Assembly: GCA_963768295.1 (NCBI GenBank)
Contig: CAVYHN010000027.1
Span: 127,009-191,008 of the forward strand
Direction of reading: 5' to 3'
Length of the DNA stretch: 64,000 nt
Source: an uncultured Gammaproteobacteria bacterium
Lineage (GTDB): Bacteria; Pseudomonadota; Gammaproteobacteria; GCA-001735895
Made by a program: the position numbers and the translations under genes. The notes beneath the pieces were generated by a model, which saw nothing but the letters and a program-made list of their open reading frames with translations, was not told where the DNA came from and made no database searches. Of the stretch, positions 3,195 through 57,196 are shown piece by piece (within the stretch, counting starts at the first letter, position 1; each line of letters begins with the position of its first letter).

Positions 3195-5669
3195 CTAGCT
3201 GGAACTCTTGATCGCGAGAATCGCCTGGTTGCGCAGGGTTTTAAGCAAGCTGAGCTGGCTATCGGTAATGTTGATCGATTCCGCGTCGGCGCTATCGATG
3301 TAAATCATCGCGATCGGCGCCTGTTTGACGATAATTGGGAAGATTGTAAAACTGCGCGCGGCAATGTTGTTATGGTACCAGGCGGGAATCTTGTCGTGGA
3401 TTTTTTCATCCCGAGTGTTGTCGATCCGAATATCGACGTTATTTTTAAAGGCCACGTGAAACACGTCCGATTGTGCTTGCAGCGGAATTGCGAAGTGTTC
3501 GATTATATTTTCAACGTCGTCGCCGTAACCAAAACGAGCCCTGATACTGTCGGTTTTTTTGTCTTTCAGGCATAACACCACGCGCGAGCCACCGAAGGCG
3601 CGATAAATGGTTTCCAGTATCATCTGCATGACCTGATTGATGCTGTACTCGCCGGTGAGCGTATTGGTGATATCCTGAATGCCGTCGGTAAGCACCTTGT
3701 CCACCGATTGGTTTTGCGGCGGGGCCAGTTCGACAAGGATTTCCACACTGTCGGTAACGCCGAATTCCTGCCGGGCGGCGTCCTGTGGAGCCTCGGGTTC
3801 CTGGTTGCCACTGGAAGAGATCTGCTGATAGTAAAGGCTTTTATCGAGGTCGAACTGGATCAGCCGGGAGAACTGGGTCAACTCCTTGTGACAGTTTTCC
3901 AGCAGCGCGGACACATTGCTCTCGTCGAGCGCGAGCGCCGCGGAGAATTGTTCCGCGAGGCGCTTGATTGCTGGCGCCTGCTGTTCCAGCGGTAAGGTCA
4001 GGCAGGCGCCAAGCGCGCTGCTGAACTGGGCGATCAAATGCAGGTTTTCCTCGGCGCTGCTCGCTGCGGGTAAATCGTCGAAGTCGAGCGGCAGCATGCT
4101 GTCGGTTATCAGCTTGGGGAAACCCCACTCGCGCGCCACCGACATGCCAAGGCGCGGGTAGCTGATGCCCAGCACCTGTATAACCGCCGCCGTCTCGCTA
4201 CAGTCCTGTCGCAACATCAGTTTGTCGATCGCGCGCGCTTCTTCGTGCAGGTAGAAGCGCACCAGCATTTTGCCGAGTTGTTGCAACAGGGCGCATAGAA
4301 ATGCTTCCTCGTGATTGGGGATATTGAGCCTGCGCGCCAACGAGTTTGCGAGCAGGCCGCTAAACAACGCCTGTACCGCATTCTCCTTGAGCTGTGAAGC
4401 CTGCAGTTTGTTCTGCATGTGCTCGAACAGCATCAGACCGGTGGCGATGCTGCGCACCGGATTGATGCCGAGCATGACAACGGCGCGCGAAATAGTGCTG
4501 ATCTTGCCGCCGCCACGGTTGTAGTAGGCCGAATTGACCAGGCGCAGCACCTTGTTGGTGAGCGAATAGTCTTTGAGAATGGTGTTGGAAACCGTGGTCA
4601 GGTTTTCGGTGTCGCTGGCCGAGGCCTGGTTTAAAACGCTGATGGTATGGGAAAAAGCCGGAAAGTCTTTCTTGTGACGCATGCGCCGCAACAAGAAGCT
4701 GACAGTGGCGCCACTATTGTCCCGCGCCGCCGCCACGTCATCCAGCGCGAGATAGTCGTTCAGCGCCTGTAGCATCGCATTAGCGTCCGGGAATCGTCGC
4801 TGCGGATTTTTTTCCAGCGATCTCAGGATTAATGCATCGAGACGTTCATCGACATCACTGTTTATTTTTGACGGCGGCTCGATCTGGCTATTGGCGATGG
4901 CGTTTAGCACCTGGTAGACGTCTTCACCACTAAACGCCGGTTTGCCGGTGAGTAGCTCGTAACACACCAGGCCGATCGAAAACACGTCGGATACCTTTTG
5001 ATGCTTGCGGGTCTCGATGTATTCCGGCGCCATGTATTGCGGCGTGCCATAGAGTGCGCCGTTGCTGCCGGCGGCGGCATCGGTAAGAAAGGCGAGTCCG
5101 AAATCGGCGATCTTGGCCTGCCCCTGTTCGCTGAGCATGATATTTGCGGGTTTAATGTCGCAATGCACGATACCCTGGCTATGCGCCGCGGCCGCACCGT
5201 TCAGAATATCGCGCATGATGCGAATTTTCCGGTCCATGTTGGCGCCGTGTCGAATTTGACTCTGCAGGGATTCACCGTCGATAAATTCGAACACCAGGAA
5301 GGGATTGTTGTCCTGCATGCCGATATCGAAAATGCTGACAATATTGGTATGTTGCAGTTTGCTGACGGTGCGGGCTTCGGCGAGAAATTGCTCGATGTTG
5401 CCATCGAGGCGCAATCCGGATTTCAAATTTACCGATTTGATTGCGACCTTGCGCTTCAGATCTGGATCGTGCGCCAGATATACGATTCCCTGGCTGCCCT
5501 TGCCGAGCACCTGCTGGATGTTGAAACGATCTATTTTTGGGGGGAAACTGGCTGCCACGTCAAACTGCAAAACCTTATCGGGTGTTTGAAGTATAGACGC
5601 CTGCTCGGACTCTGCCGCCCTTAGCCGGGTTCCTGTACCAGCACCCAGGGCTTTACCACCACGGCCCAC
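3195..5669 (-). CDS. Multidomain signalling protein: N-terminal Ser/Thr protein kinase, then an HDOD domain, then a C-terminal GAF-like domain
   Basis: Kinase motifs GKGSQGIVYLA, HCDIKPANIML, ADFG, APE; HDOD signature NKVLRLVNSAYY...ISTISRAVVMLGINPVRS; C-terminal GAF-like region. Confidence 0.75.
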   Translation of the reverse strand: MGRGGKALGAGTGTRLRAAESEQASILQTPDKVLQFDVAASFPPKIDRFNIQQVLGKGSQGIVYLAHDPDLKRKVAIKSVNLKSGLRLDGNIEQFLAEARTVSKLQHTNIVSIFDIGMQDNNPFLVFEFIDGESLQSQIRHGANMDRKIRIMRDILNGAAAAHSQGIVHCDIKPANIMLSEQGQAKIADFGLAFLTDAAAGSNGALYGTPQYMAPEYIETRKHQKVSDVFSIGLVCYELLTGKPAFSGEDVYQVLNAIANSQIEPPSKINSDVDERLDALILRSLEKNPQRRFPDANAMLQALNDYLALDDVAAARDNSGATVSFLLRRMRHKKDFPAFSHTISVLNQASASDTENLTTVSNTILKDYSLTNKVLRLVNSAYYNRGGGKISTISRAVVMLGINPVRSIATGLMLFEHMQNKLQASQLKENAVQALFSGLLANSLARRLNIPNHEEAFLCALLQQLGKMLVRFYLHEEARAIDKLMLRQDCSETAAVIQVLGISYPRLGMSVAREWGFPKLITDSMLPLDFDDLPAASSAEENLHLIAQFSSALGACLTLPLEQQAPAIKRLAEQFSAALALDESNVSALLENCHKELTQFSRLIQFDLDKSLYYQQISSSGNQEPEAPQDAARQEFGVTDSVEILVELAPPQNQSVDKVLTDGIQDITNTLTGEYSINQVMQMILETIYRAFGGSRVVLCLKDKKTDSIRARFGYGDDVENIIEHFAIPLQAQSDVFHVAFKNNVDIRIDNTRDEKIHDKIPAWYHNNIAARSFTIFPIIVKQAPIAMIYIDSADAESINITDSQLSLLKTLRNQAILAIKSSS

Positions 5670-5935
5670 AGTGAAGCTTCATTGCTGACCCAGGCGCGCG
5701 CCTGGTCGTCGGAGACTGGCCCCAACTGGTTCGCGACAGTCCATTCGTGGACCTGTTCGACGTCGTCCTGCTGCAGTGCGTAAGCCACGTCCACCAGGTC
5801 AAGCTCGGCGGACACCCGCATGACCTTGCCGGCGGCAAAGAAGCGTTGCAACTCCATCCACGGAATTTCTGCGGTTTCGCTATTGATTTTGGCTCGCTTG
5901 AGTTCGCGATCCTGGCGCAGCAGTTCCTCGATCAC
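5621..5935 (-). CDS. Small conserved hypothetical protein (DUF2288-like)
   Basis: 104-aa ORF. It overlaps the kinase start by 49 nt, so the start codon is uncertain. Confidence 0.4.
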   Translation of the reverse strand: MIEELLRQDRELKRAKINSETAEIPWMELQRFFAAGKVMRVSAELDLVDVAYALQQDDVEQVHEWTVANQLGPVSDDQARAWVSNEASLWAVVVKPWVLVQEPG

Positions 5936-6861
5936 GCGACGGACTGAATGATATCGACGCCGTCCAGCGGGGTAGATTGAATGGTATCCCGGACGGTGAA
6001 AATGGCTTCCTTGCGCGGGTAGTGTTTACGCCAGGCAATCGCCACGGTACGGCTCGGTGAAGGTTTGGAAAACGGCTTGATGTCGATCAGCGCCTCGTTC
6101 TTGTGGCTTTGCGTGACACTGGTGCGCGGCAACACCGTAATGCCAGTGCCGGCTGCCACCATATGGCGTATGGTTTCCAGCGAACCACCTTCGAGGGTAC
6201 GCGTCAGTTCGCTATCGCCCGACATGCAATCGGGGCAGGCCTGAATCACCTGGTCACGAAAGCAGTGCCCGGCACCCAGCAACATCAAATCCTGGGATGC
6301 CAGATCCTCCGGTCGAATCTCCTCGCGTTGTTTCCACTCGTGGTTGCGCGGCAGGGCAACGATGAAGGGTTCGTCGTATAGCGGCGCGGTTTCGATCCCG
6401 GGCTCGTCGAAGGGGTAGGAGATGATGATTGCGTCGAGCGCGCCCTGCTTGAGCGACTGAAACAGATTGGCGGTGAAGTTTTCCTCGATAATCAGCTTCA
6501 GGTTGGGAGCGGTCTTGCGCAGTTTCGGGATCAGGCTGGGTAACAGGTAGGGTCCGATGGTGTAGATCACACCCAGCTTGAACTGTCCGGACAGGGGGTC
6601 TTTCCCCTGCTGTGCGATTTCGGTCAGGATCTGCGCCTCCTGCAGCACGATATAGGCCTGGTTGATAATTTGCTGGCCGATTTCGGTGATGCGGATTTCA
6701 TTCTTGGAGCTGCGTTCGAACAGGCGAACACCGAGCTCCTCTTCCAGTTTCTTTATCGCGATACTTAAGGTAGGCTGGCTCACGAAACAGGCCTGAGCGG
6801 CCTTACCGAAATGATTCTTTTGCGATACCGCGACGATGTACCGGAGTTCGGTTAGAGTCAT
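5932..6861 (-). CDS. oxyR: LysR-family regulator, OxyR-like
   Basis: MTLTELRYIVAVSQ...FGKAAQACFVSQPTLSIAIKKLEEELGV plus a GHCFRDQ redox-cysteine region homologous to OxyR C199. Confidence 0.75.
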   Translation of the reverse strand: MTLTELRYIVAVSQKNHFGKAAQACFVSQPTLSIAIKKLEEELGVRLFERSSKNEIRITEIGQQIINQAYIVLQEAQILTEIAQQGKDPLSGQFKLGVIYTIGPYLLPSLIPKLRKTAPNLKLIIEENFTANLFQSLKQGALDAIIISYPFDEPGIETAPLYDEPFIVALPRNHEWKQREEIRPEDLASQDLMLLGAGHCFRDQVIQACPDCMSGDSELTRTLEGGSLETIRHMVAAGTGITVLPRTSVTQSHKNEALIDIKPFSKPSPSRTVAIAWRKHYPRKEAIFTVRDTIQSTPLDGVDIIQSVA

Positions 6862-6932
6862 AATAGTTAAAATTTATTGATCTGATCGATAGATTTTGCA
6901 TAAAACGATCTTGTTTGCAATCAATAATCGCT

Positions 6933-7382
6933 ATGAAAAAAATTCTCCTCAAATTTTTAACGATCGAGTCGATTGAATCTGACCCGATTAATCTGGAACA
7001 CGCCTTGCGGGTCGCCACCGCGGTTTTGCTGGTCGAGGTCGCGCGTGCCGACTTCATCGTTCAGCCCGCCGAAAAGGCGCGCTTGCGAGAATTGCTGGAG
7101 CGGCAGTTCAGCCTGTCGACGGCGGAACTCGCTGCGTTGATGGAGGAAGCCGAAGCCGATGCCGACCGCCTGGTTTCGCTGCAGCATATTACACGCCTGT
7201 TAAACGAACACTATGACCACGCGATGAAACTGCGGGTGGTCGAGATGATGTGGCAACTGGTGTATGCCGACGGTAACAAGGACCATTACGAAGAGCACCT
7301 GATACGCCAGGTCGCTGATCTGCTCTATGTTTCACACGGCGAGTTCATTCAGGCTCGCCACAAGGCTGAGGGGCAGTCCTGA
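6933..7382 (+). CDS. TerB-family (tellurite-resistance-like, DjlA N-domain-like) protein
   Basis: The region ALRVATAVLLVEVARADF...EKARLRELL...LVYADG fits the TerB fold. Divergently transcribed from oxyR. Confidence 0.55.
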   Translation: MKKILLKFLTIESIESDPINLEHALRVATAVLLVEVARADFIVQPAEKARLRELLERQFSLSTAELAALMEEAEADADRLVSLQHITRLLNEHYDHAMKLRVVEMMWQLVYADGNKDHYEEHLIRQVADLLYVSHGEFIQARHKAEGQS

Positions 7383-7424
7383 TCTCCCTTCGAAGAAGGT
7401 TGCAACATTCTCGGTCGGAGCGAC

Positions 7425-8030
7425 CTAGAAATTACCCAGGTAGACGATTGGCGGCACGATCAGCATCTTCGCTACCAGTATCAGCAGGGTTGCGAGCAGT
7501 GGCGACAGATCGAGCCCCCCGATCGGCGGCAGAAATTTTCGCATCGGCCTGAGCACAGGTTCTGCGATCTTGTCGACCAGCCCGATCACGGGGTTGTATT
7601 GCCCCGGGCTAATCCAGCTGAGGATGACTTTGATGATTACCGCGACCAGGAAAACCGTCAGCACCAGGGCGATCAGGTCGGCAATGCAAAACACCAGTAA
7701 ACCGCCATAGCTGGTCCCGCTAATCGGCGCCATAACTCCGCCGATTTGAACCGCGGGAATCGAGAGTACGCGCATCAGTAGAAATTTGGCATATATCAAT
7801 AGCAGGCAAAGCGCGATCGCCGCGGCATCCTGGCCCGCGACGCTGGGGATGAAGCGGCGCAGGATGCGGAGCGGCGGCGTTGTCAGCTTGACGATGAACT
7901 GTGAAACCGGGTTGTAAAAATCGGCGCGTAGCATTTGCAGCAGGAAACGCAGCAGCACCAGTAGAATGTAAAGGTCGAACAGCGTGTTAATGATCAGCAT
8001 TAAAGGTGATGTCAGATATCCGGAACCCAT
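7425..8030 (-). CDS. yggT: YggT-family membrane protein
   Basis: Two YGGT repeats. Order yggT-proC-yggS matches Pseudomonas synteny. Confidence 0.8.
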   Translation of the reverse strand: MGSGYLTSPLMLIINTLFDLYILLVLLRFLLQMLRADFYNPVSQFIVKLTTPPLRILRRFIPSVAGQDAAAIALCLLLIYAKFLLMRVLSIPAVQIGGVMAPISGTSYGGLLVFCIADLIALVLTVFLVAVIIKVILSWISPGQYNPVIGLVDKIAEPVLRPMRKFLPPIGGLDLSPLLATLLILVAKMLIVPPIVYLGNF

Positions 8031-9666: not shown

Positions 9667-10701
9667 ATGGATATAGCTCAACTCCTGGCTTTTGGCGTCA
9701 AACAGGGCGCCTCCGACTTGCACCTGTCAGCGGGATTGCCGCCTATGATTCGCGTCGATGGCGATATTCGTCGCATCAATGTTCCGGAAATGGATCACAA
9801 GCAGGTTCACGACATGATTTATGACATCATGAGTGACAAGCAGCGTAAGGATTACGAGGAATATCTCGAAACCGACTTTTCCTTCGAAATTCCCGGACTG
9901 GCGCGTTTTCGCGTCAACGCGTTTAACCACAATCGCGGCGCCGGTGGCGTGTTTCGGACCATCCCGTCGAAGATTCTCAGCCTCGAGGATTTGAACGCGC
10001 CCAAAATATTCCAGGAAATTTCCGAGTACCCGCGCGGTATCGTGCTGGTTACCGGCCCGACCGGGTCCGGCAAATCGACCACCCTGGCGGCCATGGTCGA
10101 CTACAAAAACGATAGCGAATACGGCCATATCCTGACGGTTGAAGATCCGATCGAATTCGTACACGAAAGTAAAAAATGCCTGGTCAACCAGCGCGAAGTG
10201 CACCGCGATACGCTCGGCTTTAACGAAGCCCTGCGCTCGGCGTTGCGGGAAGACCCCGACACCATCCTGGTCGGCGAGATGCGCGACCTCGAAACCATTC
10301 GCCTGGCCTTGTCCGCGGCCGAAACCGGGCACCTGGTGTTTGGCACCCTGCACACCAGTTCGGCGGCGAAGACCATCGACCGTATCGTCGACGTCTTCCC
10401 GGCGGCGGAAAAAGCGATGGTAAGATCGATGTTATCGGAGTCGCTGAAGGCGGTAATCTCGCAGACCCTGATGAAGAAAATTGGCGGTGGACGTGTCGCT
10501 GCGCATGAAATCATGATCGGCACGCCCGCGATTCGTAACCTGATCCGTGAAGACAAGGTTGCGCAAATGTATTCGGCGATACAGACTGGACAAAATGTCG
10601 GCATGCAGACGCTGGATCAAAATTTGAAATCCATGCTCGCATCGGGCGTGGTGTCCAAAGATGAAGCCCAGCGTAAAGCCGCTAATCCGGATGCGTTATA
10701 A
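9667..10701 (+). CDS. pilT: Type IV pilus retraction ATPase PilT
   Basis: Near-colinear with P. aeruginosa PilT: MDIAQLLAFGVKQGASDLHLSAGLPPMIRVDGD, Walker A GPTGSGKST. Confidence 0.95.
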   Translation: MDIAQLLAFGVKQGASDLHLSAGLPPMIRVDGDIRRINVPEMDHKQVHDMIYDIMSDKQRKDYEEYLETDFSFEIPGLARFRVNAFNHNRGAGGVFRTIPSKILSLEDLNAPKIFQEISEYPRGIVLVTGPTGSGKSTTLAAMVDYKNDSEYGHILTVEDPIEFVHESKKCLVNQREVHRDTLGFNEALRSALREDPDTILVGEMRDLETIRLALSAAETGHLVFGTLHTSSAAKTIDRIVDVFPAAEKAMVRSMLSESLKAVISQTLMKKIGGGRVAAHEIMIGTPAIRNLIREDKVAQMYSAIQTGQNVGMQTLDQNLKSMLASGVVSKDEAQRKAANPDAL

Positions 10702-10732
10702 ACCAGCGATAAAAAGGTGCTAGGGGAGTCTA

Positions 10733-11902
10733 ATGGATCGTAATAAGGCAATCAGTTTTATGCATGACTTGCTGCGCATGATGGTGAGCAAGGATGGGTC
10801 GGACTTGTTTATTACCACGGGCTCGCCGCCGGCGATGAAAATCGATGGCAAGGTCGCGACGGTTTCCAAGCAGAATCTGTCGCCGAACCATACGCAAATG
10901 CTGGCGCGTTCAATCATGAACGACAAGCAGGTTTCCGAGTTCGAGGAAAAGCAGGAGTGTAACTTTTCGATCGCACTGCCCGGGGTGGCGCGTTTTCGTG
11001 TCAATGCATTCGTGCAGCGCGGCAGTTCGGGCCTGGTGCTGCGTATCATCAATTCTGAAATTCCGACTTTCGATGAATTGAACCTGCCGCCGATACTGAA
11101 GGATATCGCGATGACCAAGCGCGGCCTGGTCATTTTCGTCGGTGGCACGGGCTCGGGTAAATCGACTTCGCTGGCTTCCATGGTGGACTACAGAAACCGG
11201 AACACTCACGGGCATATTATTACGATCGAGGACCCGGTCGAATTCGTGCATGACCATCAAAACTGCCTGGTGACCCAACGCGAGGTCGGCGTCGATACCG
11301 AGTCTTATGAAATCGCGCTCAAGAACACGCTGCGGCAGGCGCCGGACGTCATCCTGATCGGCGAGGTGCGCGATCGCGAAGCCATGGAGCACGCGATCGC
11401 CTTCGCTGAAACCGGGCATCTCTGTCTAACGACTCTGCACGCCAACAGCACCAACCAGGCGCTGGATCGTATCATCAACTTTTTCCCCGACGAGCGTCGC
11501 CAGCAGTTGCTGATGGATCTGTCGCTCAACCTCAAGGGGATGGTGTCACAACGCCTGATCCCGAAAATCGATGGTGTCGGTCGTATCCCGGCGATCGAGG
11601 TCATGCTCAATACGCCGTTGATGGCCGACCTTATATTCAAGGGCGACGTGCACGAAATGAAATCGCTTATTGCAAAATCCAACGAGGCCGGAATGCAGAC
11701 CTTCGACCAGGCCCTGTTCGATCTCTACGAAGAGCAAAAAATTACTTTCGAAGACGCCCTGCGTAATGCTGATTCGGTTAACGATATTCGTCTGCGCATA
11801 AAGCTGGAAAGTGACACTGCGCGTAAAACCGGCGTGGTCGAAGACCATCGTGATTTCGAACTCGAGGAGTCGGATGACGATGTCGCTGGCGGTATTATCT
11901 AG
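10733..11902 (+). CDS. pilU: PilU (PilT-family ATPase)
   Basis: Matches the PilU pattern: GSDLFITTGSPPAMKIDG, GGTGSGKSTSLA, LIGEVRDREAMEHAIAFAETGHLCLTTLHAN. Confidence 0.9.
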   Translation: MDRNKAISFMHDLLRMMVSKDGSDLFITTGSPPAMKIDGKVATVSKQNLSPNHTQMLARSIMNDKQVSEFEEKQECNFSIALPGVARFRVNAFVQRGSSGLVLRIINSEIPTFDELNLPPILKDIAMTKRGLVIFVGGTGSGKSTSLASMVDYRNRNTHGHIITIEDPVEFVHDHQNCLVTQREVGVDTESYEIALKNTLRQAPDVILIGEVRDREAMEHAIAFAETGHLCLTTLHANSTNQALDRIINFFPDERRQQLLMDLSLNLKGMVSQRLIPKIDGVGRIPAIEVMLNTPLMADLIFKGDVHEMKSLIAKSNEAGMQTFDQALFDLYEEQKITFEDALRNADSVNDIRLRIKLESDTARKTGVVEDHRDFELEESDDDVAGGII

Positions 11903-11922
11903 CCCTAGCCCGGAGAAGTAGA

Positions 11923-13089
11923 ATGGCCCGCGAACCCACCACGCAACTGCTCGAACCCTATCTGAAAATAATGGTAGATAAACAGGCTTCGGACCTGTAT
12001 TTCGTTACCGGCGCACCGCCCAATATGAAAACCCAGGGCAACACCGCCGCGATTGCCAAGAATCCTTTCCAGAGCGGGCAGGTCATGAAACTGGCATACA
12101 GCCTGCTGAACGACGAGCAGGTGCGGGATTTCGAGATCAACCGTGAATTGAACCTGGGCTTCACGCTGAACGACGTCGGACGCTTCCGCGTCAATATCTT
12201 CATCCAGCGTTCCGAAGTATCGATGGTCATCCGTTACATCAAGTGGGAAATTCCGACTATCGACGAACTCGGCCTGCCGCAGATACTCAAGGAAGTGGTC
12301 ATGAACCAGACCGGCATGGTGCTGGTGGTGGGATCAACCGGTTCCGGTAAGTCGACCACGCTGGCATCGATGCTAAATCATCGCAACAATACTGTCGGCG
12401 GGCATATCCTGACGATCGAGGATCCGATCGAATTCGTGTTTCGGCACGACAAATCGATTGTGTCGCAGCGTGAAGTCGGTATCGATACCCTGAGCTACGC
12501 CAACGCGCTGCGCGAGGCGCTGCGCGAAGCCCCGGAAGTCATCATGATCGGTGAGGCGCGCGACGGCGAAACCATGAAGGCGGCGATCAACTTCGCCGAC
12601 ACCGGTCACCTGTGCCTGACCACGCTGCACGCGGTTAACTCGAACCAGGCGATGGACCGGATCATGAACATGTTTCCGACCGATATGCGTGATCAGCTGT
12701 TGATGGATTTATCGCTCAACCTGAAGGCGGTTATTTCGCAGCGCCTGGTGCCGGGCATGCAGGGTAAACTGGCCTGTGCGGTCGAGATCATGATGAACAC
12801 GCCTTATATTTCAGAACTGTTGCGCGAGGGTAATTTCAACGAGATCAAGGAAATCATGGAGAAGGGCGATACCACCGGTATGCAGACCTTCGACCAGTCG
12901 CTTTACCATCTCTACAAGGCGGATGCGATCACGATCAAGAATGCGCTGGCCTACGCGGATTCCAGTACCAACCTCGAATGGAAGATCAACTTCGGTGGTG
13001 AGCAACCGTCATCGCAGGATACCCGCCACCAGCTGAACAAGCAGGGCGCTGCACTTGAAGAGTTGACCCTGCCCTCCGAAGAAGACTAG
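11923..13089 (+). CDS. Second PilU/PilT-family ATPase paralog
   Basis: Motifs ASDLYFVTGAPPNMKTQG, GSTGSGKSTTLA, GHLCLTTLHA. Third tandem retraction ATPase. Confidence 0.85.
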   Translation: MAREPTTQLLEPYLKIMVDKQASDLYFVTGAPPNMKTQGNTAAIAKNPFQSGQVMKLAYSLLNDEQVRDFEINRELNLGFTLNDVGRFRVNIFIQRSEVSMVIRYIKWEIPTIDELGLPQILKEVVMNQTGMVLVVGSTGSGKSTTLASMLNHRNNTVGGHILTIEDPIEFVFRHDKSIVSQREVGIDTLSYANALREALREAPEVIMIGEARDGETMKAAINFADTGHLCLTTLHAVNSNQAMDRIMNMFPTDMRDQLLMDLSLNLKAVISQRLVPGMQGKLACAVEIMMNTPYISELLREGNFNEIKEIMEKGDTTGMQTFDQSLYHLYKADAITIKNALAYADSSTNLEWKINFGGEQPSSQDTRHQLNKQGAALEELTLPSEED

Positions 13090-17135: not shown

Positions 17136-17345
17136 AAGCAGTAGTTATATTACAAATCCTGAATGTCGGCTGTTGGCCGAAGATTGCCTCCCGCCCTAGT
17201 TTTTTGAGGGTCTCCTTTGGAGAAAACAGACGCCCAAAAATTCCCATTGAGCGGCAGAAACCGCATCCCGAAACAGACGCTCGCGCCAGTGTCGAACCAA
17301 TTGCGCCGCGGGCGCTTTGTCCGATTGCATGCGCTTGTATGGTTG
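17136..17345 (+). repeat. Island repeat copy I3 (long 5' extension, then M1-M2-M3 and the 3' unit)
   Basis: The 48-bp extension gaagcagtagttatattacaaatcctgaatgtcggctgttggccg is identical to copy I11. It contains the exact 19-mer ttggccgaagattgcctcc. It ends GTCGAAC...gattgcatgcgcttgtatgg. Confidence 0.7.
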
Positions 17346-32414: not shown

Positions 32415-33263
32415 TTACAAGGCTTCTTCTAGTCGCGCCAGGCGTTGTTGTTCTTCGAGCATGGCCTGTTTGATTTCTTCGATTACTGCGCCGACGTCTG
32501 GGTCTAACTCGATCGCGTCGTACTCGCCACTGAGCGCGACCTCCGGATGTAAATCGCCAGCCTCGTATAATGCCCAGATTTCTTTGGCGTATCGAGTATT
32601 CAGTATTTCCGGGGCATACAAGCCATAGTAGCTCGTGATTTTATTAATATCACGCGCGAGCAATCGTGCAGCATTGTTATTGGCTGCCGCGTTTACCACC
32701 TGTGGCAGATCTATAATGACCGGGCCATAGTCGTCGACCAGCACATTGAATTCCGACAGATCACCATGCACCAGTCCTTCGCAAAGCATGCGAACGACGT
32801 AACGCATCATCAGCTCATGATCTTCGATGGCCTGCTCGGCAGACATGGCGACGTCGTTCAGACGTGGCGCTTCAAATCCATCTTCATCGCAAATCAACTC
32901 CATTAGCAAAACGCCGTCGAAGCAACCATAGGGTTTAGGCACGCGCACGCCGACCCTGGCGAGTCGAAACAGTGCGTCCACTTCGGTGTTTTGCCAGACC
33001 TGCTCCTGCTCCTTGCGGCCAAAGCGCGAACCCTTTTCCATCGCGCGTGCGCGTCGGCTATTGCGCACTTTACGACCTTCCTGATATTGCGTTGCCTGTT
33101 TGAAGCCGCGTTTGTCGGCTTCTTTATAAATTTTGGCGCAGCGCATTTCGCTACCACAGCGCACGATAAACACATCGGCTTCTTTTCCACTCATGAGCGG
33201 ACGGATCACTTCGTCGACCAGGCCGTCTTCGACGAGGGGTTTGATTCGTTTAGGGATTTTCAT
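32415..33263 (-). CDS. RIO-like serine protein kinase (PA4780 family)
   Basis: RIO domain with the lysine and catalytic region (LVHGDLSEFNVLV). Confidence 0.7.
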   Translation of the reverse strand: MKIPKRIKPLVEDGLVDEVIRPLMSGKEADVFIVRCGSEMRCAKIYKEADKRGFKQATQYQEGRKVRNSRRARAMEKGSRFGRKEQEQVWQNTEVDALFRLARVGVRVPKPYGCFDGVLLMELICDEDGFEAPRLNDVAMSAEQAIEDHELMMRYVVRMLCEGLVHGDLSEFNVLVDDYGPVIIDLPQVVNAAANNNAARLLARDINKITSYYGLYAPEILNTRYAKEIWALYEAGDLHPEVALSGEYDAIELDPDVGAVIEEIKQAMLEEQQRLARLEEAL

Positions 33264-33555
33264 CGCGGCCTTATACCCTAGTTAAGCCGAGTATGAAAGC
33301 AAATGCCGGTAGTATCGATGCGAAGCATTGGTCACCCGCTCGATATTAGCTAGTTGTCCTAAAATGCAAGTCCATCAAATTAACGTACTCTGTGTCGGCG
33401 TCGTCGGCATTTACCGTAGGTTCAATTTACAACAACTGGAGTTACCGGATCGAGTTAGTCGACCTTGAACAGACCCTGAGCCTTCCATACTACAAGCCAT
33501 GCCCGCGCAACGAGGGCCCACACCGCTTATTCGCCGGCATCGAAAAACCAGTTTC

Positions 33556-34233
33556 TTAATCGAACTGGATAGCTTGCAATTTCCGGATTTGATCCCGCAG
33601 ATGGCCGGGCGTAAACGCAATGGCTGCCGGATCATTCTGTACCGCTCGAGTGCAGACTACGGGGCTGCGCAGCGACAACGGCACGTAACGCAAGGTTAAC
33701 CCCGATTTGGAAACTGCGGTTAAACAGTTCTTTTCGGTGATCAGTTCTTCGGGCAGGCTGGCAATGATGCGGCTATCGACCTTGTGAATCATGCGATTGA
33801 GAAACTCCTCATCCCAGAATATCGCCCACGCGCGGAAATAAATATTCGCGTAGTGGCGTTTTCCCTTCACGGGATCGAGTTCGAGGCGTTTCAACGCTTC
33901 TCTCGATATGCGACTTTCCAGGTAGCTGGGCTTATGCCGGTTGCGCATTAGTTGCCAATGCCGCCTCGACTCCCCAATGGAGTAAAGGTTTTCAGCTAGC
34001 TCGAAAACCTCACTCGTCATGGTGTAACCGGGCAGTTTGTCCACCTCATCAAGGCTGCTTGCGACGACTATCTGGGCCACTTGCTTGATTGAGATATCGC
34101 TCTTTCTGCACAAATCTGACAAATCGTATGCTTCGCCGGTTTTGACGTACTCGGCCAGCAAGCTCGCGTCCAGCATCGATGGTGGCAGGCTTCGTATTTC
34201 GATGGCCAGCGTTCTGGCACTGTCATTATTCAT
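33556..34233 (-). CDS. DUF4116 repeat-containing hypothetical protein
   Basis: ELITEKNCLTAVSKSGLTLRYVP...VCTRAVQNDPAAIAFTP matches DUF4116 repeats. Confidence 0.5.
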   Translation of the reverse strand: MNNDSARTLAIEIRSLPPSMLDASLLAEYVKTGEAYDLSDLCRKSDISIKQVAQIVVASSLDEVDKLPGYTMTSEVFELAENLYSIGESRRHWQLMRNRHKPSYLESRISREALKRLELDPVKGKRHYANIYFRAWAIFWDEEFLNRMIHKVDSRIIASLPEELITEKNCLTAVSKSGLTLRYVPLSLRSPVVCTRAVQNDPAAIAFTPGHLRDQIRKLQAIQFD

Positions 34234-34244
34234 ATCCGAGTTCT

Positions 34245-34586
34245 TTAGCGTGGCAGCAGAATGGTTTCAAACCAGGCTCTCCGGTTTAGCCCGGCCCGCG
34301 TTAAGTCATATATAACTAACTCTGGATATTCTCTCCAATAGAAGTATAAATCCAGATCCTTGGTAAATATTGTCAGGGTAAACGGTAGCGTTATAAAGTT
34401 GTTTATCGAATAAAATTTTATCGCTTCATTGTCAGGCGCCTGCGCCTGGCTGATTGCCGCCTGCTGCAGGAAATTTGCCAGAGCCGGCTTTGGCGAAGGG
34501 AGCTCCCAATTCCCAGCAGTGAAATCATCCCGGGTTAATTCTGGACGATCCAGGAGGGGCCTCATGTCAGTCGCGAGGGGATCCAT
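34245..34586 (-). CDS. Hypothetical protein (113 aa)
   Basis: Open reading frame only. Confidence 0.35.
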   Translation of the reverse strand: MDPLATDMRPLLDRPELTRDDFTAGNWELPSPKPALANFLQQAAISQAQAPDNEAIKFYSINNFITLPFTLTIFTKDLDLYFYWREYPELVIYDLTRAGLNRRAWFETILLPR

Positions 34587-34704
34587 CGGTCGCCGGCTAA
34601 TTGGAAACTGTGGTCAACATTTTTACGCTTTGGTATCGCCAAATCTCGTAATACCCGGTTTCAGGCAGCTAAGCGCAGGCACTCAGTGGAAGGCAATACC
34701 TGAG

Positions 34705-35190
34705 CTAGACCTCAATCGGGATCTCGAAGCCGAGTTTGACATTCTCCATCACCACCATGGTCTTGAAGCTCTTGATGTGCGGTGATTCCCAGAAAAACGA
34801 CTGCGTAAACTGCTCGTAGTCCGCCAGCGATCTCGACACTACCAGCAACACGAAGTCAGCGTCGCCGGTAGTATAGAAGGCCTGTAGAATCCTCGGGTTT
34901 TCAGTAATCGAACGTTTGAAGTCCTGCACGATATCGCGCCGGTCCCGCTCAAGGTTTACGAACACCAGGGTAAAGACCTCGTAGTCGAGGCGGGCGGGGT
35001 CGACGATCGAGACATCCCTCTGGATGGTGCCATCCTGGCGCATTTTATTGACCCGGCGCTTGGCTGCCGTGGGCGAGAGGTTCACGGCCTCGCCCAGTTT
35101 TTCGGTGCTGCTCAGGGCGTCCCGCTGCAGCAGCTGTAGCAAGGACCTGTCAATGGCGTCAATTTGAACATCGTCGTAATTATCTTTCAT
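34705..35190 (-). CDS. Lrp/AsnC-family transcriptional regulator
   Basis: HTH (LSSTEKLGEAVNLSPTAAKRRVNKM) plus a RAM domain. Confidence 0.85.
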   Translation of the reverse strand: MKDNYDDVQIDAIDRSLLQLLQRDALSSTEKLGEAVNLSPTAAKRRVNKMRQDGTIQRDVSIVDPARLDYEVFTLVFVNLERDRRDIVQDFKRSITENPRILQAFYTTGDADFVLLVVSRSLADYEQFTQSFFWESPHIKSFKTMVVMENVKLGFEIPIEV

Positions 35191-35380
35191 CTTGCAGTTA
35201 ACCGTCGTCTAAAGGCCCTGATACGCAGTATTATCGCATAATCTGTCGATACAATAGAGCGCAGTACTGACATCCCGCGAAGGCAGCGTTTCGCACAAGG
35301 TAACCAGTCTCGCCCAGTGTCCGGTTCTGGTCGTATAAATCTTTAGTAATGTCCGTTGTGAAAAGCCGGCGCCAGAGATA

Positions 35381-35750
35381 TTGAATATGCCAGAGGGAAA
35401 AGTACTCAAGCAGCGGGACAGGCACCTGGATCGATTAAACGATTCGAGCCTGTTGTGCGACCGCGCCTACATTGACGGCGAGTGGTGCGAGGGCGACGAC
35501 GATGCGCGTTTCGATGTCACCAATCCGGCGGATGGCGCCTGGTTGGCGGCGGTATCGAGCGTCGGCGCCGCACAGAGCCTTGCTGCGGTCGACGCGGTTG
35601 ATGCGGCAGCCAGGGAATGGTCGGAGTCAATTGCACCAGGGTTACCGGTGCGCCGATCCCATTGGGCGGCATGAAACAATCCGGCCGCGAACGCGAAGGA
35701 GCCAGGCAGGGCATGGAAGCCTGCACCGAAGTCAAATACGTTTGCCGGGA
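35381..35750 (+). pseudogene. gabD: Remnant of succinate-semialdehyde/aldehyde dehydrogenase (gabD-like) with a roughly 1.1-kb internal out-of-frame deletion
   Basis: The first frame encodes an ALDH N-terminus (YIDGEWCEGDDDARFDVTNPADGAW...AAREW), stopping at 35674. A different frame from about 35602 encodes an ALDH C-terminus (VGVNC...PIPLGGMKQSGRERE...TEVKYVCRDYD*). Confidence 0.7.
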
Positions 35751-35796
35751 TTACGATTGAACACCCGGCTAATCGCTTAACGAATCAGGAAATACG

Positions 35797-37233
35797 ATGA
35801 GTAATAATACTGTCTTGAATACACCGAGTAGCGCCGCAGCGGCGACCGAAGAGTTGGCGCAGGGCGACCGCGCCACGACCCTGCACCCGTTTACCGCGGT
35901 GCGCGCTTACGAAGCGGATGAAACCGGCGGGCCGCGCATCATTGAATCTGGAAAGGGAATCCGTATTACCGACGCTGACGGCAAAACCTCGATCGACGGG
36001 TTCGCCGGACTCTATTGCGTCAATATCGGTTACGGACGCACCGAGGTCGCGGACGCGATATCCGAACAGGCACATCAGCTCGCCTATTATCACTGTTACG
36101 CAGGGCACACCACGCGTGCGCTGGCGCAGCTGTCGCAACGCCTGATCGACCTGGCGCCGGGCAATATGCGCAAGGTGTTCTATGGCCTGTCCGGCTCCGA
36201 TGCCAACGAAACCGAGGCCAAGCTGGTCTGGCATTACCATAACCTGATCGGCAAGCCCGACAAGAAAAAAATCATTGCGCGCGATCGCGGCTATCACGGT
36301 TGTTCGGTCGTTTCCGGGTCGATGACCGGCATGAATTTTTACCATGCCCATATGGACCTGCCGGTGCTCGGTATTTTGCATACCGGGGTTCCACATTATT
36401 ACTGGGGCGCCGAGGCAGGCGAAACCGAGCTTGATTTTTCACGCCGCCGGGCCGCGGAACTCGAACAGATGATACTCGCCGAGGGCGCGGATACCGTCGG
36501 CGCCTTTATCGCGGAACCGGTGCTCGGCACCGGCGGGATTATTCCCCCGCCAGAGGGTTACTGGGACGAAATCCAGGCAGTACTCAAAAAATATGACGTG
36601 CTGCTGATTGCGGACGAGGTGGTCACCGCCTTTGGCCGCATCGGCGCCTGGTTCGGCTCTTCGGTCTACGCTATGGAACCCGACCTGATCACAGTGGCCA
36701 AGGGCCTTACCTCCGCTTACGCGCCGCTGTCCGCGGTGATTATCGGTGATCGCGTGTCCGACGCGCTGTCGTCGCATTCCGACGAGATCGGCGTCTTTTC
36801 GCACGGCTATACCTACAGCGGCCACCCAATTTGCGTCGCGGCGGCCAATGCTAACCTGGATGTATTGCAAAAGGACCAGATCGTCGAGCACGTGGCTGAC
36901 CTCGGCAACGCGCTGCGCGACGCCCTGGCCGAGGCGGTCAAGGATTCGCCGATCATCGCTGAGGTGCGTGGTGTCGGTATGCTCGCGGCGATTGAGTTCG
37001 TCGCCGACCCGGAAAACAGGGTCCGCTTCGACGCGAGCCACAAGGTCGGTGCGAAAATGTCGGCCGCCTGTCTCGCCAATGGCTTGATCGCGCGCGCCAT
37101 GCCCCACGGCGATATCCTCGGGTTTGCGCCGCCCCTGATCACGACGCGTGACGAGATCAATGAAATTGCCGCAATCGTGCGCAAATCTGTGTCGACGGTG
37201 TGCGACGACCTCAGGCAGGCTGGTATTATCTGA
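35797..37233 (+). CDS. Class III PLP-dependent aminotransferase (omega-amino acid:pyruvate / SpuC-GabT-like)
   Basis: 478 aa; GLYCVNIGYG, DEVVTAFGRIGAWFG, PLP-lysine region TVAKGLTSAY. Confidence 0.85.
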   Translation: MSNNTVLNTPSSAAAATEELAQGDRATTLHPFTAVRAYEADETGGPRIIESGKGIRITDADGKTSIDGFAGLYCVNIGYGRTEVADAISEQAHQLAYYHCYAGHTTRALAQLSQRLIDLAPGNMRKVFYGLSGSDANETEAKLVWHYHNLIGKPDKKKIIARDRGYHGCSVVSGSMTGMNFYHAHMDLPVLGILHTGVPHYYWGAEAGETELDFSRRRAAELEQMILAEGADTVGAFIAEPVLGTGGIIPPPEGYWDEIQAVLKKYDVLLIADEVVTAFGRIGAWFGSSVYAMEPDLITVAKGLTSAYAPLSAVIIGDRVSDALSSHSDEIGVFSHGYTYSGHPICVAAANANLDVLQKDQIVEHVADLGNALRDALAEAVKDSPIIAEVRGVGMLAAIEFVADPENRVRFDASHKVGAKMSAACLANGLIARAMPHGDILGFAPPLITTRDEINEIAAIVRKSVSTVCDDLRQAGII

Positions 37234-37412
37234 AGCAGGCGCTTGTCCACTTTATAAATCGGTCACCAAGGGCCTGATGATTTTCGGGCTTCACCGTCGT
37301 GGCTGCGCCCTCCCGCGATGCAGAGATGTCGTGCCCTGGAGAGGGCCCAGGTCAGCCGCGAGGGGATCCAACGCGCGCCCACTCAATGGGAAGCTGTCGT
37401 CGAGCCAGTAAA

Positions 37413-38690
37413 TTAAAGTTGGTAAACGATTTCGGCGGCGATGATGGTGTGGGTGACGCTGCCGCGGAAATCCCAGCCTTCGAAGGCCGTGTTCCTGCCC
37501 TTGGAGACAAAATTGACCGCCTGACAGATCCAGTGGGTTTCGGGGTCGACGATGATCAGGTCCGCGACCTCGCCGGCTTCGATTTTACCGCCGGGCAGCC
37601 CCATGATGGTAGCTGGATTCAGCGTCAGCCTGGCGATCAGGTCGGCCAGCGGCAGCACGTCCTCCTCGACCAGGCGCAGCGCCAGGGGCAGGAGGGTGTC
37701 GAGCCCGCTGATGCCGGGTTCTGCCGACGGGTAGGGTTTCAGCTTGGCGTCGACCTCATGCGGCTGGTGATCCGAGCACAGGCAGTCGATGGTGCCATCA
37801 GCCACACCCTCGCGCAGCGCATCGCGGTCTGACTCACTGCGCAGCGGCGGGATAGTAAACATGTTGCTATCGAAATAGCCGATATCGTGATCGGTGAGAA
37901 ATAACTGGTGGATGGCGCAATCGGCGCTGATCGGCAAGCCCTTGGCCTTGGCGCGGCGAATCATGTCGACCGAGCGCGCGCAGGAAAGCTGGCCGAAATG
38001 CGTGCGCGCGCCGGTCTGCGCCACCAGTTCGATGTCTTTGGCCAGCGCCGCGGTTTCGGCTGCTTCCGGGATCGCGGGCAGCCCTAGCCGGGTCGAGATA
38101 GCGCCCTCGTGGGCGCAGCCGTTGCCGAGCAATTCATGGTCCAGGGGCTGAATGATAACCATCGACTGCTGACCCGCGGCATAGTCCATCGCGCGTCGCT
38201 GCACCAGGTTGTTGGCCAGTGGAATCTTGGCATTGCTGAACGCAATGCAGCCGTTATCGCGCAGGCTCGCCATGTTGCTGAGTTGCTCGCCGCCGAGCCC
38301 GCGAGTCAGCGCACCGATCGGATAGACATGTGCCCTGTGTCCAAACATTTCATTGCGATGGTGGATCAACTCGACGGTGGCCGAATTGTCGATCGCCGGC
38401 TGTGTGTCCGGGGGCAGGCACAGGCTGGTGATTCCGTTTTTGATCGCGGCCAGGGTCTCGCTTTCGATGTTGGCCTTTTCCGGTTGCCCGGGGTCGCGCA
38501 GTCGCGCCTGGCAATCGATCAGGCCGGGCATGATCCAGCGGCCGGCGGCATCGATCGTCTGCGTTGCCTGGAAACTATCTGGCGCCTTGTCGATACCGAC
38601 GATCTTGCCATCCTGCAGATATAAATCGGCCTGGCGTTGCGTCGATCCGGCGGCTTCAACCAGCAGACCGTTTTTGATATGCAGGCTCAA
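37413..38690 (-). CDS. pyrC': Dihydroorotase-like non-catalytic subunit PyrC' (pseudoenzyme partner of aspartate carbamoyltransferase)
   Basis: Amidohydrolase fold, but the N-terminal metal-binding HxH is replaced ([13 protein letters not shown]). Overlaps the pyrB stop (ATGA). Confidence 0.75.
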
Positions 38691-55777: not shown

Positions 55778-57196
55778 CTAGTAGCGATAGGTATCGGGTT
55801 TGTAGGGGCCCTCGACCTTGACACCAATATAGTCGGCCTGTTCCTGGCTGAGCGTGGTCAGTTTGACGCCGATCTTCTCCAGGTGCAGACGCGCGACCTC
55901 TTCGTCGAGGTGCTTGGGCAGAACGTAAACCTCGTTTTGATACTTGCCCGGGTTGCAGAAAATTTCCATCTGCGCCAGCACCTGGTTGGTGAACGAGTTA
56001 GACATCACGAAACTCGGGTGACCGGTGGCGCAGCCCAGGTTGACCAGACGTCCTTCGGCCAGCAGGATAATGCGCCTGCCGTCGGGGAAGATGATGTGAT
56101 CGACCTGCGGCTTGATGTTTTCCCAGTCGTAGCCCTTCATTTCGGCGACCTGGATTTCGTTGTCGAAGTGACCGATGTTGCAGACAATCGACTGATCTTT
56201 CATCTGCTCCATGTGTTCCTTGCGGATGACATTGAAGTTGCCGGTTGCGGTGACGAAGATGTCGGCTTCCTTGCAGGCATCGTCCATGGTGACGACGCGG
56301 AAACCTTCCATCGCCGCCTGCAGCGCGCAGATCGGATCGATCTCGGTGACGAGTACGCTGGCGCCGAGGCCCTTGAGCGACTGCGCGCAACCCTTGCCGA
56401 CGTCGCCATAACCCAGCACCAGGGCGACCTTACCGGCGATCATGACGTCGGTAGCGCGCTTGATACCGTCAACCAGGGATTCACGACAGCCGTAGAGATT
56501 GTCAAATTTCGACTTGGTGACCGAATCGTTGACGTTGAAAGCGGGGAAGGGCAGTTCGCCTTTCGCCTGCATCTGGTAGAGGCGGTGCACGCCAGTGGTG
56601 GTTTCCTCGGTAACGCCCTGGATGTTTTGCTGGATGCTGGAATACCAGTTGGGCGATTCGGCCAATTTGGCGCGAATTGCCGCGAAGGCGATTTCTTCTT
56701 CCTCGGTTCCCGGGTTATCGAGCACCGATATATCTTTCTCGGCCTTGCTGCCGAGGTTGATCAGCATGGTCGCATCGCCACCATCATCGAGAATCATGTT
56801 AGGTGTGCCGCCATCATGCCATTGCATGATCTTGTGGGTGTACTGCCAGTAGTCTTCCAGTGATTCGCCTTTGATCGCGAATACCGGTACGCCGGATTCG
56901 GCAATTGCCGCGGCGGCGTGATCCTGGGTAGAAAAGATGTTGCAGGATGCCCAGCGCACTTCGGCGCCGAGCGCGACCAGGGTCTCGATTAAAACCGCGG
57001 TCTGGATGGTCATGTGCAGCGAACCGGCGATGCGCGCGCCTTTCAGCGGCTGTTCGGCGCCATACTTGCCGCGCAGGGATACCAGGCCTGGCATTTCGGT
57101 TTCTGCGATCGCGATTTCTTTGCGGCCCCAGGAAGCGAGTGAAAGGTCGGCGACCTTGTAATCTTCTTTGATAACGTCTTGCGCGTTAGCACTCAT
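55778..57196 (-). CDS. ahcY: Adenosylhomocysteinase
   Basis: 472 aa; NAD-binding region and the conserved SAHH N-terminus. Confidence 0.95.

Follow-up and report, generated by a model that had tools for sequence, protein, structure and literature searches.

A decayed aldehyde dehydrogenase gene upstream of an intact transaminase

We analysed a stretch of 64,000 nucleotides (hereafter the window) from an uncultured gammaproteobacterium (contig CAVYHN010000027.1, positions 127,009 to 191,008) and focused on a short segment directly upstream of a gene encoding a class-III aminotransferase (hereafter the transaminase). This segment, at positions 35381-35760, is the non-functional relic of a 496-residue aldehyde dehydrogenase (ALDH) gene of the succinate-semialdehyde dehydrogenase (SSADH)-like type. 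It is made of two stubs that are encoded on the plus strand in different frames. The N-terminal stub is part of an open reading frame (ORF) that starts at a TTG (35381) or an ATG (35387) and ends with a stop codon whose last base is 35674. Alignment with orthologues restricts its homology to codons 1-79 (35387-35623), after which it reads on out of frame to the stop at 35672-35674. The C-terminal stub is contained in the ORF at 35602-35760; its homology covers the last 48 codons (35614-35757), shifted by +1 relative to the N-terminal stub, and is followed by the original TGA at 35758-35760. The relic thus comprises 127 codons in total. The relic has nothing of residues 80-448 of the orthologue, and with them the NAD(P)-binding and catalytic core was lost: it is a member of the ALDH family by homology, but it lacks the features of a functional enzyme (the Rossmann core and the catalytic Cys and Glu).

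The identity of both stubs is supported by several types of comparisons. The C-terminal stub matches positions 418-461 of the 461 positions of the Pfam profile Aldedh (PF00171) with 32.3 bits, above the 23-bit cutoff, and the N-terminal stub matches positions 1-48 with 18.6 bits (E 7.5e-4), below it. When searched with phmmer against PDB, the N-terminal stub aligns to residues 1-65 of the E. coli GabD (3jz4, E 4.6e-10) and the C-terminal stub to SSADH chains (approximately residues 434-508, E 1e-8 to 3e-6). Both match, by tblastn, the intact 496-residue gene found at the same position in a related locus, L001 (E 4e-31 for the N-terminal and 2e-24 for the C-terminal stub). The N-terminal stub is 80% identical in amino acids to residues 1-79 of the ALDH of another related locus, L057, and the C-terminal stub is 85% identical to those of L001 and L057. 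An earlier reading of these letters without database searches (hereafter the sequence-only reading) had proposed two out-of-frame stubs derived from an ALDH. It placed both correctly, and the Pfam, PDB and orthologue matches bear it out. It also had the position of the relic right, but ended it at 35750, whereas the stop codon reaches 35760.

Two deletions at short repeats shaped the locus

To find relatives, we used the aminotransferase as query, first against one genome per species and then against metagenome contigs. An intact ALDH of 496 residues lies directly upstream of the transaminase in L057/L108/L109 and L058 (transaminase 94% identical), and in L001 (92%); its coordinates are 4473-5960 in L057, 8473-9963 in L108 and 6474-7964 in L001. 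Many loci with 80-84% transaminase identity likewise carry an ALDH directly upstream. The window aligns to L057 in two blocks, 35282-35623 with 4368-4709 (89% nucleotide identity) and 35614-37245 with 5817-7449 (92.7%), and these overlap on the sequence GAATGGTCG (35615-35623, plus strand). This sequence is present twice in the intact genes (at 4701 and 5818 in L057, at 6702 and 7819 in L001) and once in the window; in L057 the repeat extends to 10 nt with the following C (GAATGGTCGC). It encodes E77-W78-S79 at the first site and, in another frame, G449-M450-V451 at the second. What is missing from the window amounts to 1,117 bp, with no filler DNA at the junction, and since this length corresponds to 372 codons plus one base, the frame is shifted between the stubs. 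A deletion of 1,117 bp between direct repeats of 9-10 nt therefore brought codon 449 directly behind codon 79, shifted by +1. Finding the repeat once at the junction and twice in the intact allele is characteristic of replication slippage or of microhomology-mediated illegitimate recombination. These results agree with the claim of the sequence-only reading that an internal deletion removed the core and fused the two ends of the ALDH out of frame. The junction falls inside the range it had predicted (about 35610-35635), and its estimate of about 360 missing codons was close, although slightly too low.

The nucleotide identity with L001 differs on the two sides of this junction (74% on the left, 92% on the right). 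We rejected recombination as the cause, as the closer L057 shows 89-93% on both sides. The low identity on the left arises because the N-terminal ALDH region of L001 and L058 is itself divergent (dS, the synonymous divergence, is 0.82 between L057 and L001).

The account of one deletion is nevertheless incomplete, because it overlooked a second deletion, of 3,555 bp, directly upstream, and with it a relic of 18 codons of another gene. The window at 34712-35284 aligns to L057 243-815, i.e., to lrp, the gene of an Lrp/AsnC-family regulator, and the first ~90 nt of the intergenic region that follows. The boundary 35281|35282 then joins L057 815 to 4368 (2810 to 6369 in L001), with GGC at both ends in L057 and a GGC microhomology at the junction in the window (35282-35284). 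The missing 3,555 bp (in L057 coordinates) hold dctP, dctQ, dctM and a universal stress protein gene (usp) except for its 18 final codons, as judged from L057, L108, L001, L102 and L104. This deletion thus took out a TeaABC/UehABC-like tripartite ATP-independent periplasmic (TRAP) transporter with the greater part of usp. What is left of the TeaD-like usp, 18 codons (GSVSHKVTSLAQCPVLVV) and the stop, lies at 35282-35338 on the plus strand, and 35282-35335 is 94% identical to residues 128-145 of the L001 protein (tblastn). In L108, the genes follow one another as AsnC (minus strand), DctP, DctQ, DctM, Usp, Aldedh and Aminotran_3, and L102 and L104 are alike except for the ALDH. The ancestral and still widespread organisation is therefore a divergent lrp facing dctPQM-usp-ALDH-class-III transaminase.

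The genes on either side of the relics are intact, as the sequence-only reading had stated. The regulator (34705-35190, minus strand, 161 residues; Pfam AsnC_trans_reg and HTH_AsnC-type) is divergent from the relic operon and shows 84-91% nucleotide identity with the lrp genes of L001 and L057. The lrp-proximal part of the lrp/dctP intergenic region is retained at 35191-35281 (aligning with L057 721-815 and L001 2720-2810) and includes a conserved block, ATACGCAGTATTATCGCATAAT (35221-35242), and a TACAAT box (35250-35255). Downstream of the C-terminal stub, the original ALDH-transaminase spacer (35761-35796, plus strand), with the ribosome-binding site of the transaminase (AGGAAA, 35787-35792), is the one kept in L001 and L057. 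It leads to the transaminase (35797-37233, plus strand, 478 residues, DoeD/Atf-type; Pfam Aminotran_3, E 9e-76), which has no frameshift or stop across its 478 codons.

We also considered that the relic region might hold a riboswitch or a small RNA. An Rfam scan of 33000-38000 found no family at E<=0.1, and no structured element in the relic region, which rules out this reading. Elsewhere in the window, an S-adenosylhomocysteine (SAH) riboswitch (RF01057, 57212-57284, minus strand) scores 57 bits for a gathering score of 37. It is in an ordinary arrangement, with an ORF of 472 residues directly downstream on the same strand (55778-57196), presumably an adenosylhomocysteinase.

The stubs drift while their neighbours are conserved

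We estimated the ratio of non-synonymous to synonymous substitution rates (omega) in pairwise comparisons with the method of Nei and Gojobori (NG86). The transaminase has an omega of 0.09-0.17 in every pair, including those of the window with L103 and with L107 (all without ALDH), and lrp has 0.10-0.12. Relative to L057, the N-terminal stub has 8 synonymous and 19 non-synonymous differences (omega 0.67) and the C-terminal stub 5 and 7 (omega 0.40). The stubs pooled (13 synonymous, 26 non-synonymous) differ significantly from the transaminase (72 and 29; Fisher p = 8e-5). The segment of the C-terminal stub is especially informative: L057 and L001 differ there by 5 synonymous and 0 non-synonymous changes, and the proteins of L057, L058 and L001 are identical over the 48 residues. 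The window differs from either intact gene by 4-5 synonymous and 7 non-synonymous changes, with all 7 replacements specific to the window. They include PFGG to PLGG, G(L/I) to GR and (Y/F) to C, and three of the seven affect positions that are invariant in 11 intact orthologues; the N-terminal stub differs at 2 of the 22 positions invariant in the same set. Hence, purifying selection maintains the transaminase and Lrp but not the stubs, which are drifting, and the window-specific replacements next to conserved flanks indicate that the deletion is old enough for neutral drift to have accumulated.

Erosion of the ALDH in relatives

We then surveyed the transaminase homologues with at least 85% identity and sufficient upstream sequence. 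Three populations keep the ALDH; in at least seven different architectures it is eroded or missing as a result of different deletions. In L102/L104/L105/L106 (transaminase 95-96%, from four samples of the Joint Genome Institute, JGI), the TRAP transporter and usp are intact and the ALDH is cut to an ORF of 86 residues (L102 4987-5247; L104 5393-5653) by two internal deletions (L057 4506-5518 and ~5608-5847) that retain residues 351-389. In L110 (92%), just residues 401-496 are left, adjoining lrp. In L107 (95%), ~12 N-terminal and 14 C-terminal codons remain. The last ~30 codons (~95 nt) persist in L060 and L061 (85-86%), with one-base insertions or frameshifts, and this 3' remnant is fused just downstream of the conserved block on the lrp side (L060 1900-2000; L061 3390-3490). 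No remnant is found in L059 (85%) and L103 (97%).

The contents of the relics in the window, in the L102 type and in L110 are incompatible with one shared deletion, which points to at least three independent events of ALDH erosion. We did not count L107 and L103 as independent, because later or larger deletions would have erased the junction seen in the window. In a neighbour-joining tree of the transaminase gene (without support values), the intact L057, L058 and L001 are interleaved with eroded loci, and the window groups with L103 and L107. In the window and in L060/L061 alike, the deletion begins just downstream of two elements on the lrp side, the conserved block ACGCAGYATTATYGCA and a TAnAAT box, which are kept in intact and deleted relatives. 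Every deletion variant surveyed spares the transaminase and its ribosome-binding site, but the transaminase itself is not always spared: L100 (6001-6306) keeps only its last 102 codons (92% identical).

Upstream of the transaminase of L107, positions 490-846 and 1204-1583 carry an IS3-type transposase ORF (HTH_Tnp_1) and a 5'-truncated usp. The activity of insertion sequences may contribute to the erosion or mobility of the module.

The module in its genomic context

The module of lrp, relics and transaminase is flanked by imperfect direct repeats of 58 nt (left copy at 34550-34607, right copy at 37335-37392), identified by a repeat search. The two are 76% identical and are the only copies in the window. 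Their 20-nt core is also found only twice in the window, for 0.02 matches expected by chance. In L113 (GCA_947259305.1), where pyrC' is 97% identical and the backbone 95.8% identical in nucleotides, the sequence runs from the equivalent of window 37344 straight to 34615 through a single repeat copy (L113 2875-2932). The 2.78-kb block is absent, i.e., this is an empty site. Candidate origins for this arrangement are an att-like site, an insertion facilitated by homology, or an excision in L113. L111, L112, L114 and L115 have other cargo after pyrC', and their homology with the window resumes only at ~13,100. The closest intact modules lie in unrelated contexts: that of L108 lies between tig-clpP-clpX and cysS, and L110 and L107 differ again. 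The unrelated contexts, the variable cargo and the empty site together suggest that the relic lies in a small accessory cassette of 2.8 kb, within a variable region next to pyrC', and that this remnant is probably mobile. Gene decay is unsurprising in such a setting.

The variable region spans ~24 kb (window ~13100-37410), between three genes for PilT-like T2SSE ATPases (9667-13089) and pyrC' (37413-38690). In its place L114 and L115 have only a Ser/Thr kinase gene, L111 and L112 a different cargo of ~4.3 kb, and L113 differs again. Two ORFs (225 and 113 residues; 33556-34586, minus strand) separate a RIO-kinase-like gene from lrp. The first had no match in an NCBIfam scan, and only the first ~45 codons of the second (34245-34586) are common to L113. 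The right 58-nt copy resembles a diverged duplicate of the 5' end of this 113-residue ORF (LDPLAAD for MDPLATD). We also considered a tRNA-associated integration site, but ARAGORN found no tRNA in the window and this idea is unsupported. A 72-nt segment at 17165-17236, not called as a tRNA by ARAGORN, matches L100 at 5404-5475 and 11957-12019 (83-85% identity) and looks like a short dispersed repeat.

Pathway assignment

The sequence-only reading had named the relic gabD and placed it in a shunt for gamma-aminobutyrate (GABA). This label is probably wrong. The intact ALDH of L001 scores below the NCBIfam cutoffs for SSADH (564.1 for a cutoff of 646.35 with TIGR01780, 538.6 for 828 with NF008415), as does the DoeC of Halomonas elongata. 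The two proteins are 50% identical and have in common the motif around the catalytic Cys, GQDCLAANR, which is GQTCVCTNR in the GabD-type 4v6h. The transaminase of the window matches NCBIfam NF005684 with 742 bits (cutoff 687), and this is also the top family of the H. elongata DoeD, to which it is 56% identical; we took DoeD from L024, a locus whose DoeA and DoeB both score above their equivalog cutoffs. The gabT-type model NF005376 is absent from the top 25 NCBIfam families of the window transaminase, and its score with the H. elongata DoeD is 204.7 for a cutoff of 676.

The partners found in relatives point the same way. The DctP of L001 matches 3gyy, UehA (3fxb) and TeaA (2vpn/2vpo) with E 1e-102 to 1e-105, the next match being at 6e-45 (for the identity of these PDB entries, see PMC5924519). 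The best PDB match of the intact L001 Usp is 3hgm, 'Universal Stress Protein TeaD' (E 3.7e-33). The JGI annotation calls the transaminase of the relatives 'L-2,4-diaminobutyrate transaminase' and a fragment of the ALDH orthologue 'aspartate-semialdehyde dehydrogenase'. Homologues with 76-77% transaminase identity adjoin a bona fide DoeB (L008) or EutABC (L009), above cutoff, and L004 and L010 have DoeA-like proteins, below cutoff. In the degradation of ectoine, DoeA produces N-alpha-acetyl-diaminobutyrate, DoeB diaminobutyrate, DoeD/Atf aspartate semialdehyde, and DoeC/Ssd aspartate (PMC3187862, PMC5924519). As in the published DoeC/Ssd clusters, the relic is followed directly by a DoeD/Atf-type transaminase and accompanied by an AsnC/Lrp regulator. 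It is thus best read as what would have been a DoeC/Ssd-type ALDH oxidising aspartate semialdehyde, in a putative ectoine/2,4-diaminobutyrate module made of a TeaABC/UehABC-like TRAP transporter, a TeaD-like usp, a DoeC/Ssd-like ALDH and a DoeD/Atf-like transaminase.

Alternative explanations

We weighed four alternatives to the reading just given. The deletion could be an artefact, i.e., a collapse or chimera of the assembly of a genome with a full-length ALDH: the source contig appears to be derived from a metagenome, the relatives are all metagenome-assembled genomes (MAGs) or metagenome contigs, and the exact junction of the window was not found in a second sample in the metagenome scan or the protein searches, where only the Logan contig L116 matched. 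This 1,091-nt contig from run ERR12040029 crosses both junctions and has 100% identity with window 35149-36239, so that two different assemblies agree at these points, and the junction-crossing ORF of 95 residues is present in the source record and in the Logan assembly. A repeat of 9-10 nt is also far below the k-mer sizes of assemblers and cannot collapse an assembly graph. Moreover, the stubs have the window-specific, non-conservative substitutions expected of an old pseudogene, and relatives show analogous but different deletions, one type in four separate samples. An artefact is therefore very improbable. We give equally little credence to the idea that the stubs are a functional small gene (the ORF of 95 residues at 35387-35674) or a regulatory leader. 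This ORF keeps the original ATG and is called as a gene in the source record (P0241), and the relics do sit between a putative promoter and the transaminase. Yet its substitutions are elevated and non-conservative, its out-of-frame tail of 16 residues has no homologue besides the record of the window itself, other lineages keep entirely different portions of the relic or none, and Rfam finds no family or structured element. It is unlikely, if less strikingly so, that the whole module is decaying accessory DNA, in which the transaminase has simply not yet been hit. Compared with a backbone 95.8% identical in nucleotides, the module is an indel of 2.8 kb inside a variable region, the genes next to the transaminase have been repeatedly lost, and in L100 the loss extends to most of the transaminase. 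But the low omega of the transaminase in every pair and of Lrp, the lack of any frameshift or stop when the adjacent stubs have an omega of 0.4-0.7 at the same divergence, and the sparing of the transaminase and its ribosome-binding site in every deletion variant all argue against this.

Other observations weigh against the assignment to ectoine and the scenario built on it. Judged from its sequence only, the ALDH resembles GabD-type SSADHs roughly as much as it does DoeC (~490-500 bits for the intact protein with GabD chains), and the best PDB matches of the transaminase bear the name '4-aminobutyrate transaminase'. There are no doeA, doeB, eutABC or ect genes in the window, nor in the 21 kb that make up the closest intact locus, L108. 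A tblastn of the window with the H. elongata DoeA, DoeB and DoeX, with EutA, EutB and EutC, and with the TRAP DctP, DctQ and DctM finds only the relics and the transaminase, and DoeX has no match at E<=1e-3. The substrate of the module in this sub-clade could thus be other than diaminobutyrate derived from ectoine. A scan of 34600-37500 for consensus sigma-70 promoters found none, and the continued transcription of the transaminase is suggested by conservation and purifying selection only. Finally, L116 may share its sequencing run with the source assembly, in which case it excludes an error specific to an assembler but not one at the level of the library. The '4-aminobutyrate transaminase' matches and the lack of doeA and doeB nearby would favour a true gabD, in a gabD-gabT locus for GABA or a generic omega-amine shunt. 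So would the fact that, among solved structures, SSADH/GabD chains come first for the two stubs as well as for the intact orthologue, whose best NCBIfam model is TIGR01780 (SSADH). However, the orthologue stays below both SSADH cutoffs just as DoeC does, its catalytic motif is that of DoeC, the operon partners in relatives are TeaA/UehA-like and TeaD-like, the transaminase falls in NF005684 with DoeD and not among gabT-type proteins, and the source annotations name a diaminobutyrate transaminase and an aspartate-semialdehyde dehydrogenase. We regard a true gabD as rather unlikely. Taken as a whole, the reading of an ALDH relic produced by two short-repeat deletions in an ectoine/diaminobutyrate-type module, with transaminase and Lrp retained, is in our view very probable.

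Consequences of the losses

Two deletions at short repeats inactivated the ALDH and removed the transporter and most of usp. Neither touched the 91 nt of the intergenic region closest to lrp or the ribosome-binding site proper to the transaminase. From this we propose the following scenario. With these elements retained, the transaminase is probably still transcribed, from a promoter on the Lrp side and through a leader of ~530 nt made of relics. The conserved block and the TAnAAT box are the putative promoter/operator that would now feed it. The cell would thus keep an Lrp-regulated omega-transaminase, useful to harvest amino nitrogen from diaminobutyrate or a similar amine. The dedicated uptake and the oxidation step that yields carbon would be lost. 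Aspartate semialdehyde, the product of the DoeD reaction, is a normal biosynthetic intermediate, and the aldehyde could enter the biosynthesis of the aspartate family, which would leave the pathway truncated rather than broken. No other ALDH is found in the window. The claim of a shunt broken at the dehydrogenase step was overstated: the doeC knockout of H. elongata does not grow on ectoine as carbon source, but still uses it as nitrogen source (PMC3187862).

The relic is an ordinary pseudogene and an instance of a well-known event. What it adds is the recurrent loss of a DoeC-type enzyme and the cassette-like remnant. We tentatively suggest, as a conjecture that is more doubtful than probable, that selection favours a recurrent loss of the DoeC/Ssd-type ALDH, often along with TRAP and usp, in this clade of uncultured Gammaproteobacteria, to date represented by MAGs and metagenome contigs alone, and that this loss yields a ~2.8-kb cassette with an Lrp-regulated transaminase that moves between sites. 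A possible driver is that the ALDH drains a precursor of lysine, diaminopimelate, threonine and methionine, or engages in a futile cycle with Asd. If so, the ALDH would be costly unless the substrate serves as carbon source, and the transaminase alone would be enough for nitrogen. The repeated loss of the ALDH next to a conserved transaminase suggests that natural populations can do without the final step of the proposed ectoine/diaminobutyrate pathway, and that the transaminase serves a purpose by itself.

These results have implications for annotation. The ORF at 35387-35674 should not count as a gene, and the locus should be taken neither for a working GABA shunt nor for a working ectoine-catabolic pathway. 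The 'orphan' transaminase should be annotated as a DoeD/Atf-type enzyme separated from its partners. Marker-gene surveys of ectoine degraders would need to account for such losses.

Comparison with known systems

The closest known counterparts of the relic are DoeC (H. elongata Helo_3662) and Ssd (Ruegeria pomeroyi), SSADH-related ALDHs of ectoine catabolism that oxidise L-aspartate-beta-semialdehyde to aspartate. They share with it the position directly upstream of a DoeD/Atf-type class-III transaminase and the association with an AsnC/Lrp-family regulator. Unlike them, the gene of the window is a relic of 127 codons without catalytic core, and the closest intact loci have no adjacent doeA/doeB or eutABCDE. 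The regulator differs as well, being transcribed divergently and unmatched by the DoeX query. GabD, the NADP-dependent SSADH (3jz4 of E. coli; 4v6h of Burkholderia), belongs to the same neighbourhood of the ALDH family, and the stubs align to its residues 1-65 and 434-478. The operon partners in the relatives are different, since they are an ectoine-type TRAP transporter and a TeaD-like Usp, and not gabT/gabP. These partners resemble teaABCD of H. elongata and uehABC-usp of R. pomeroyi, ectoine/hydroxyectoine TRAP transporters with a trailing usp. The relatives share the order dctP-dctQ-dctM-usp, whereas the window keeps the last 18 codons of usp and has lost the transporter entirely. Finally, pseudogenes produced by deletions between short repeats have, like the relic, one repeat copy at the junction, a deletion length that is not a multiple of three, and subsequent neutral drift. 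The deletions of the window are nothing unusual in this respect, and the one that removed the transporter uses a microhomology of just 3 nt.

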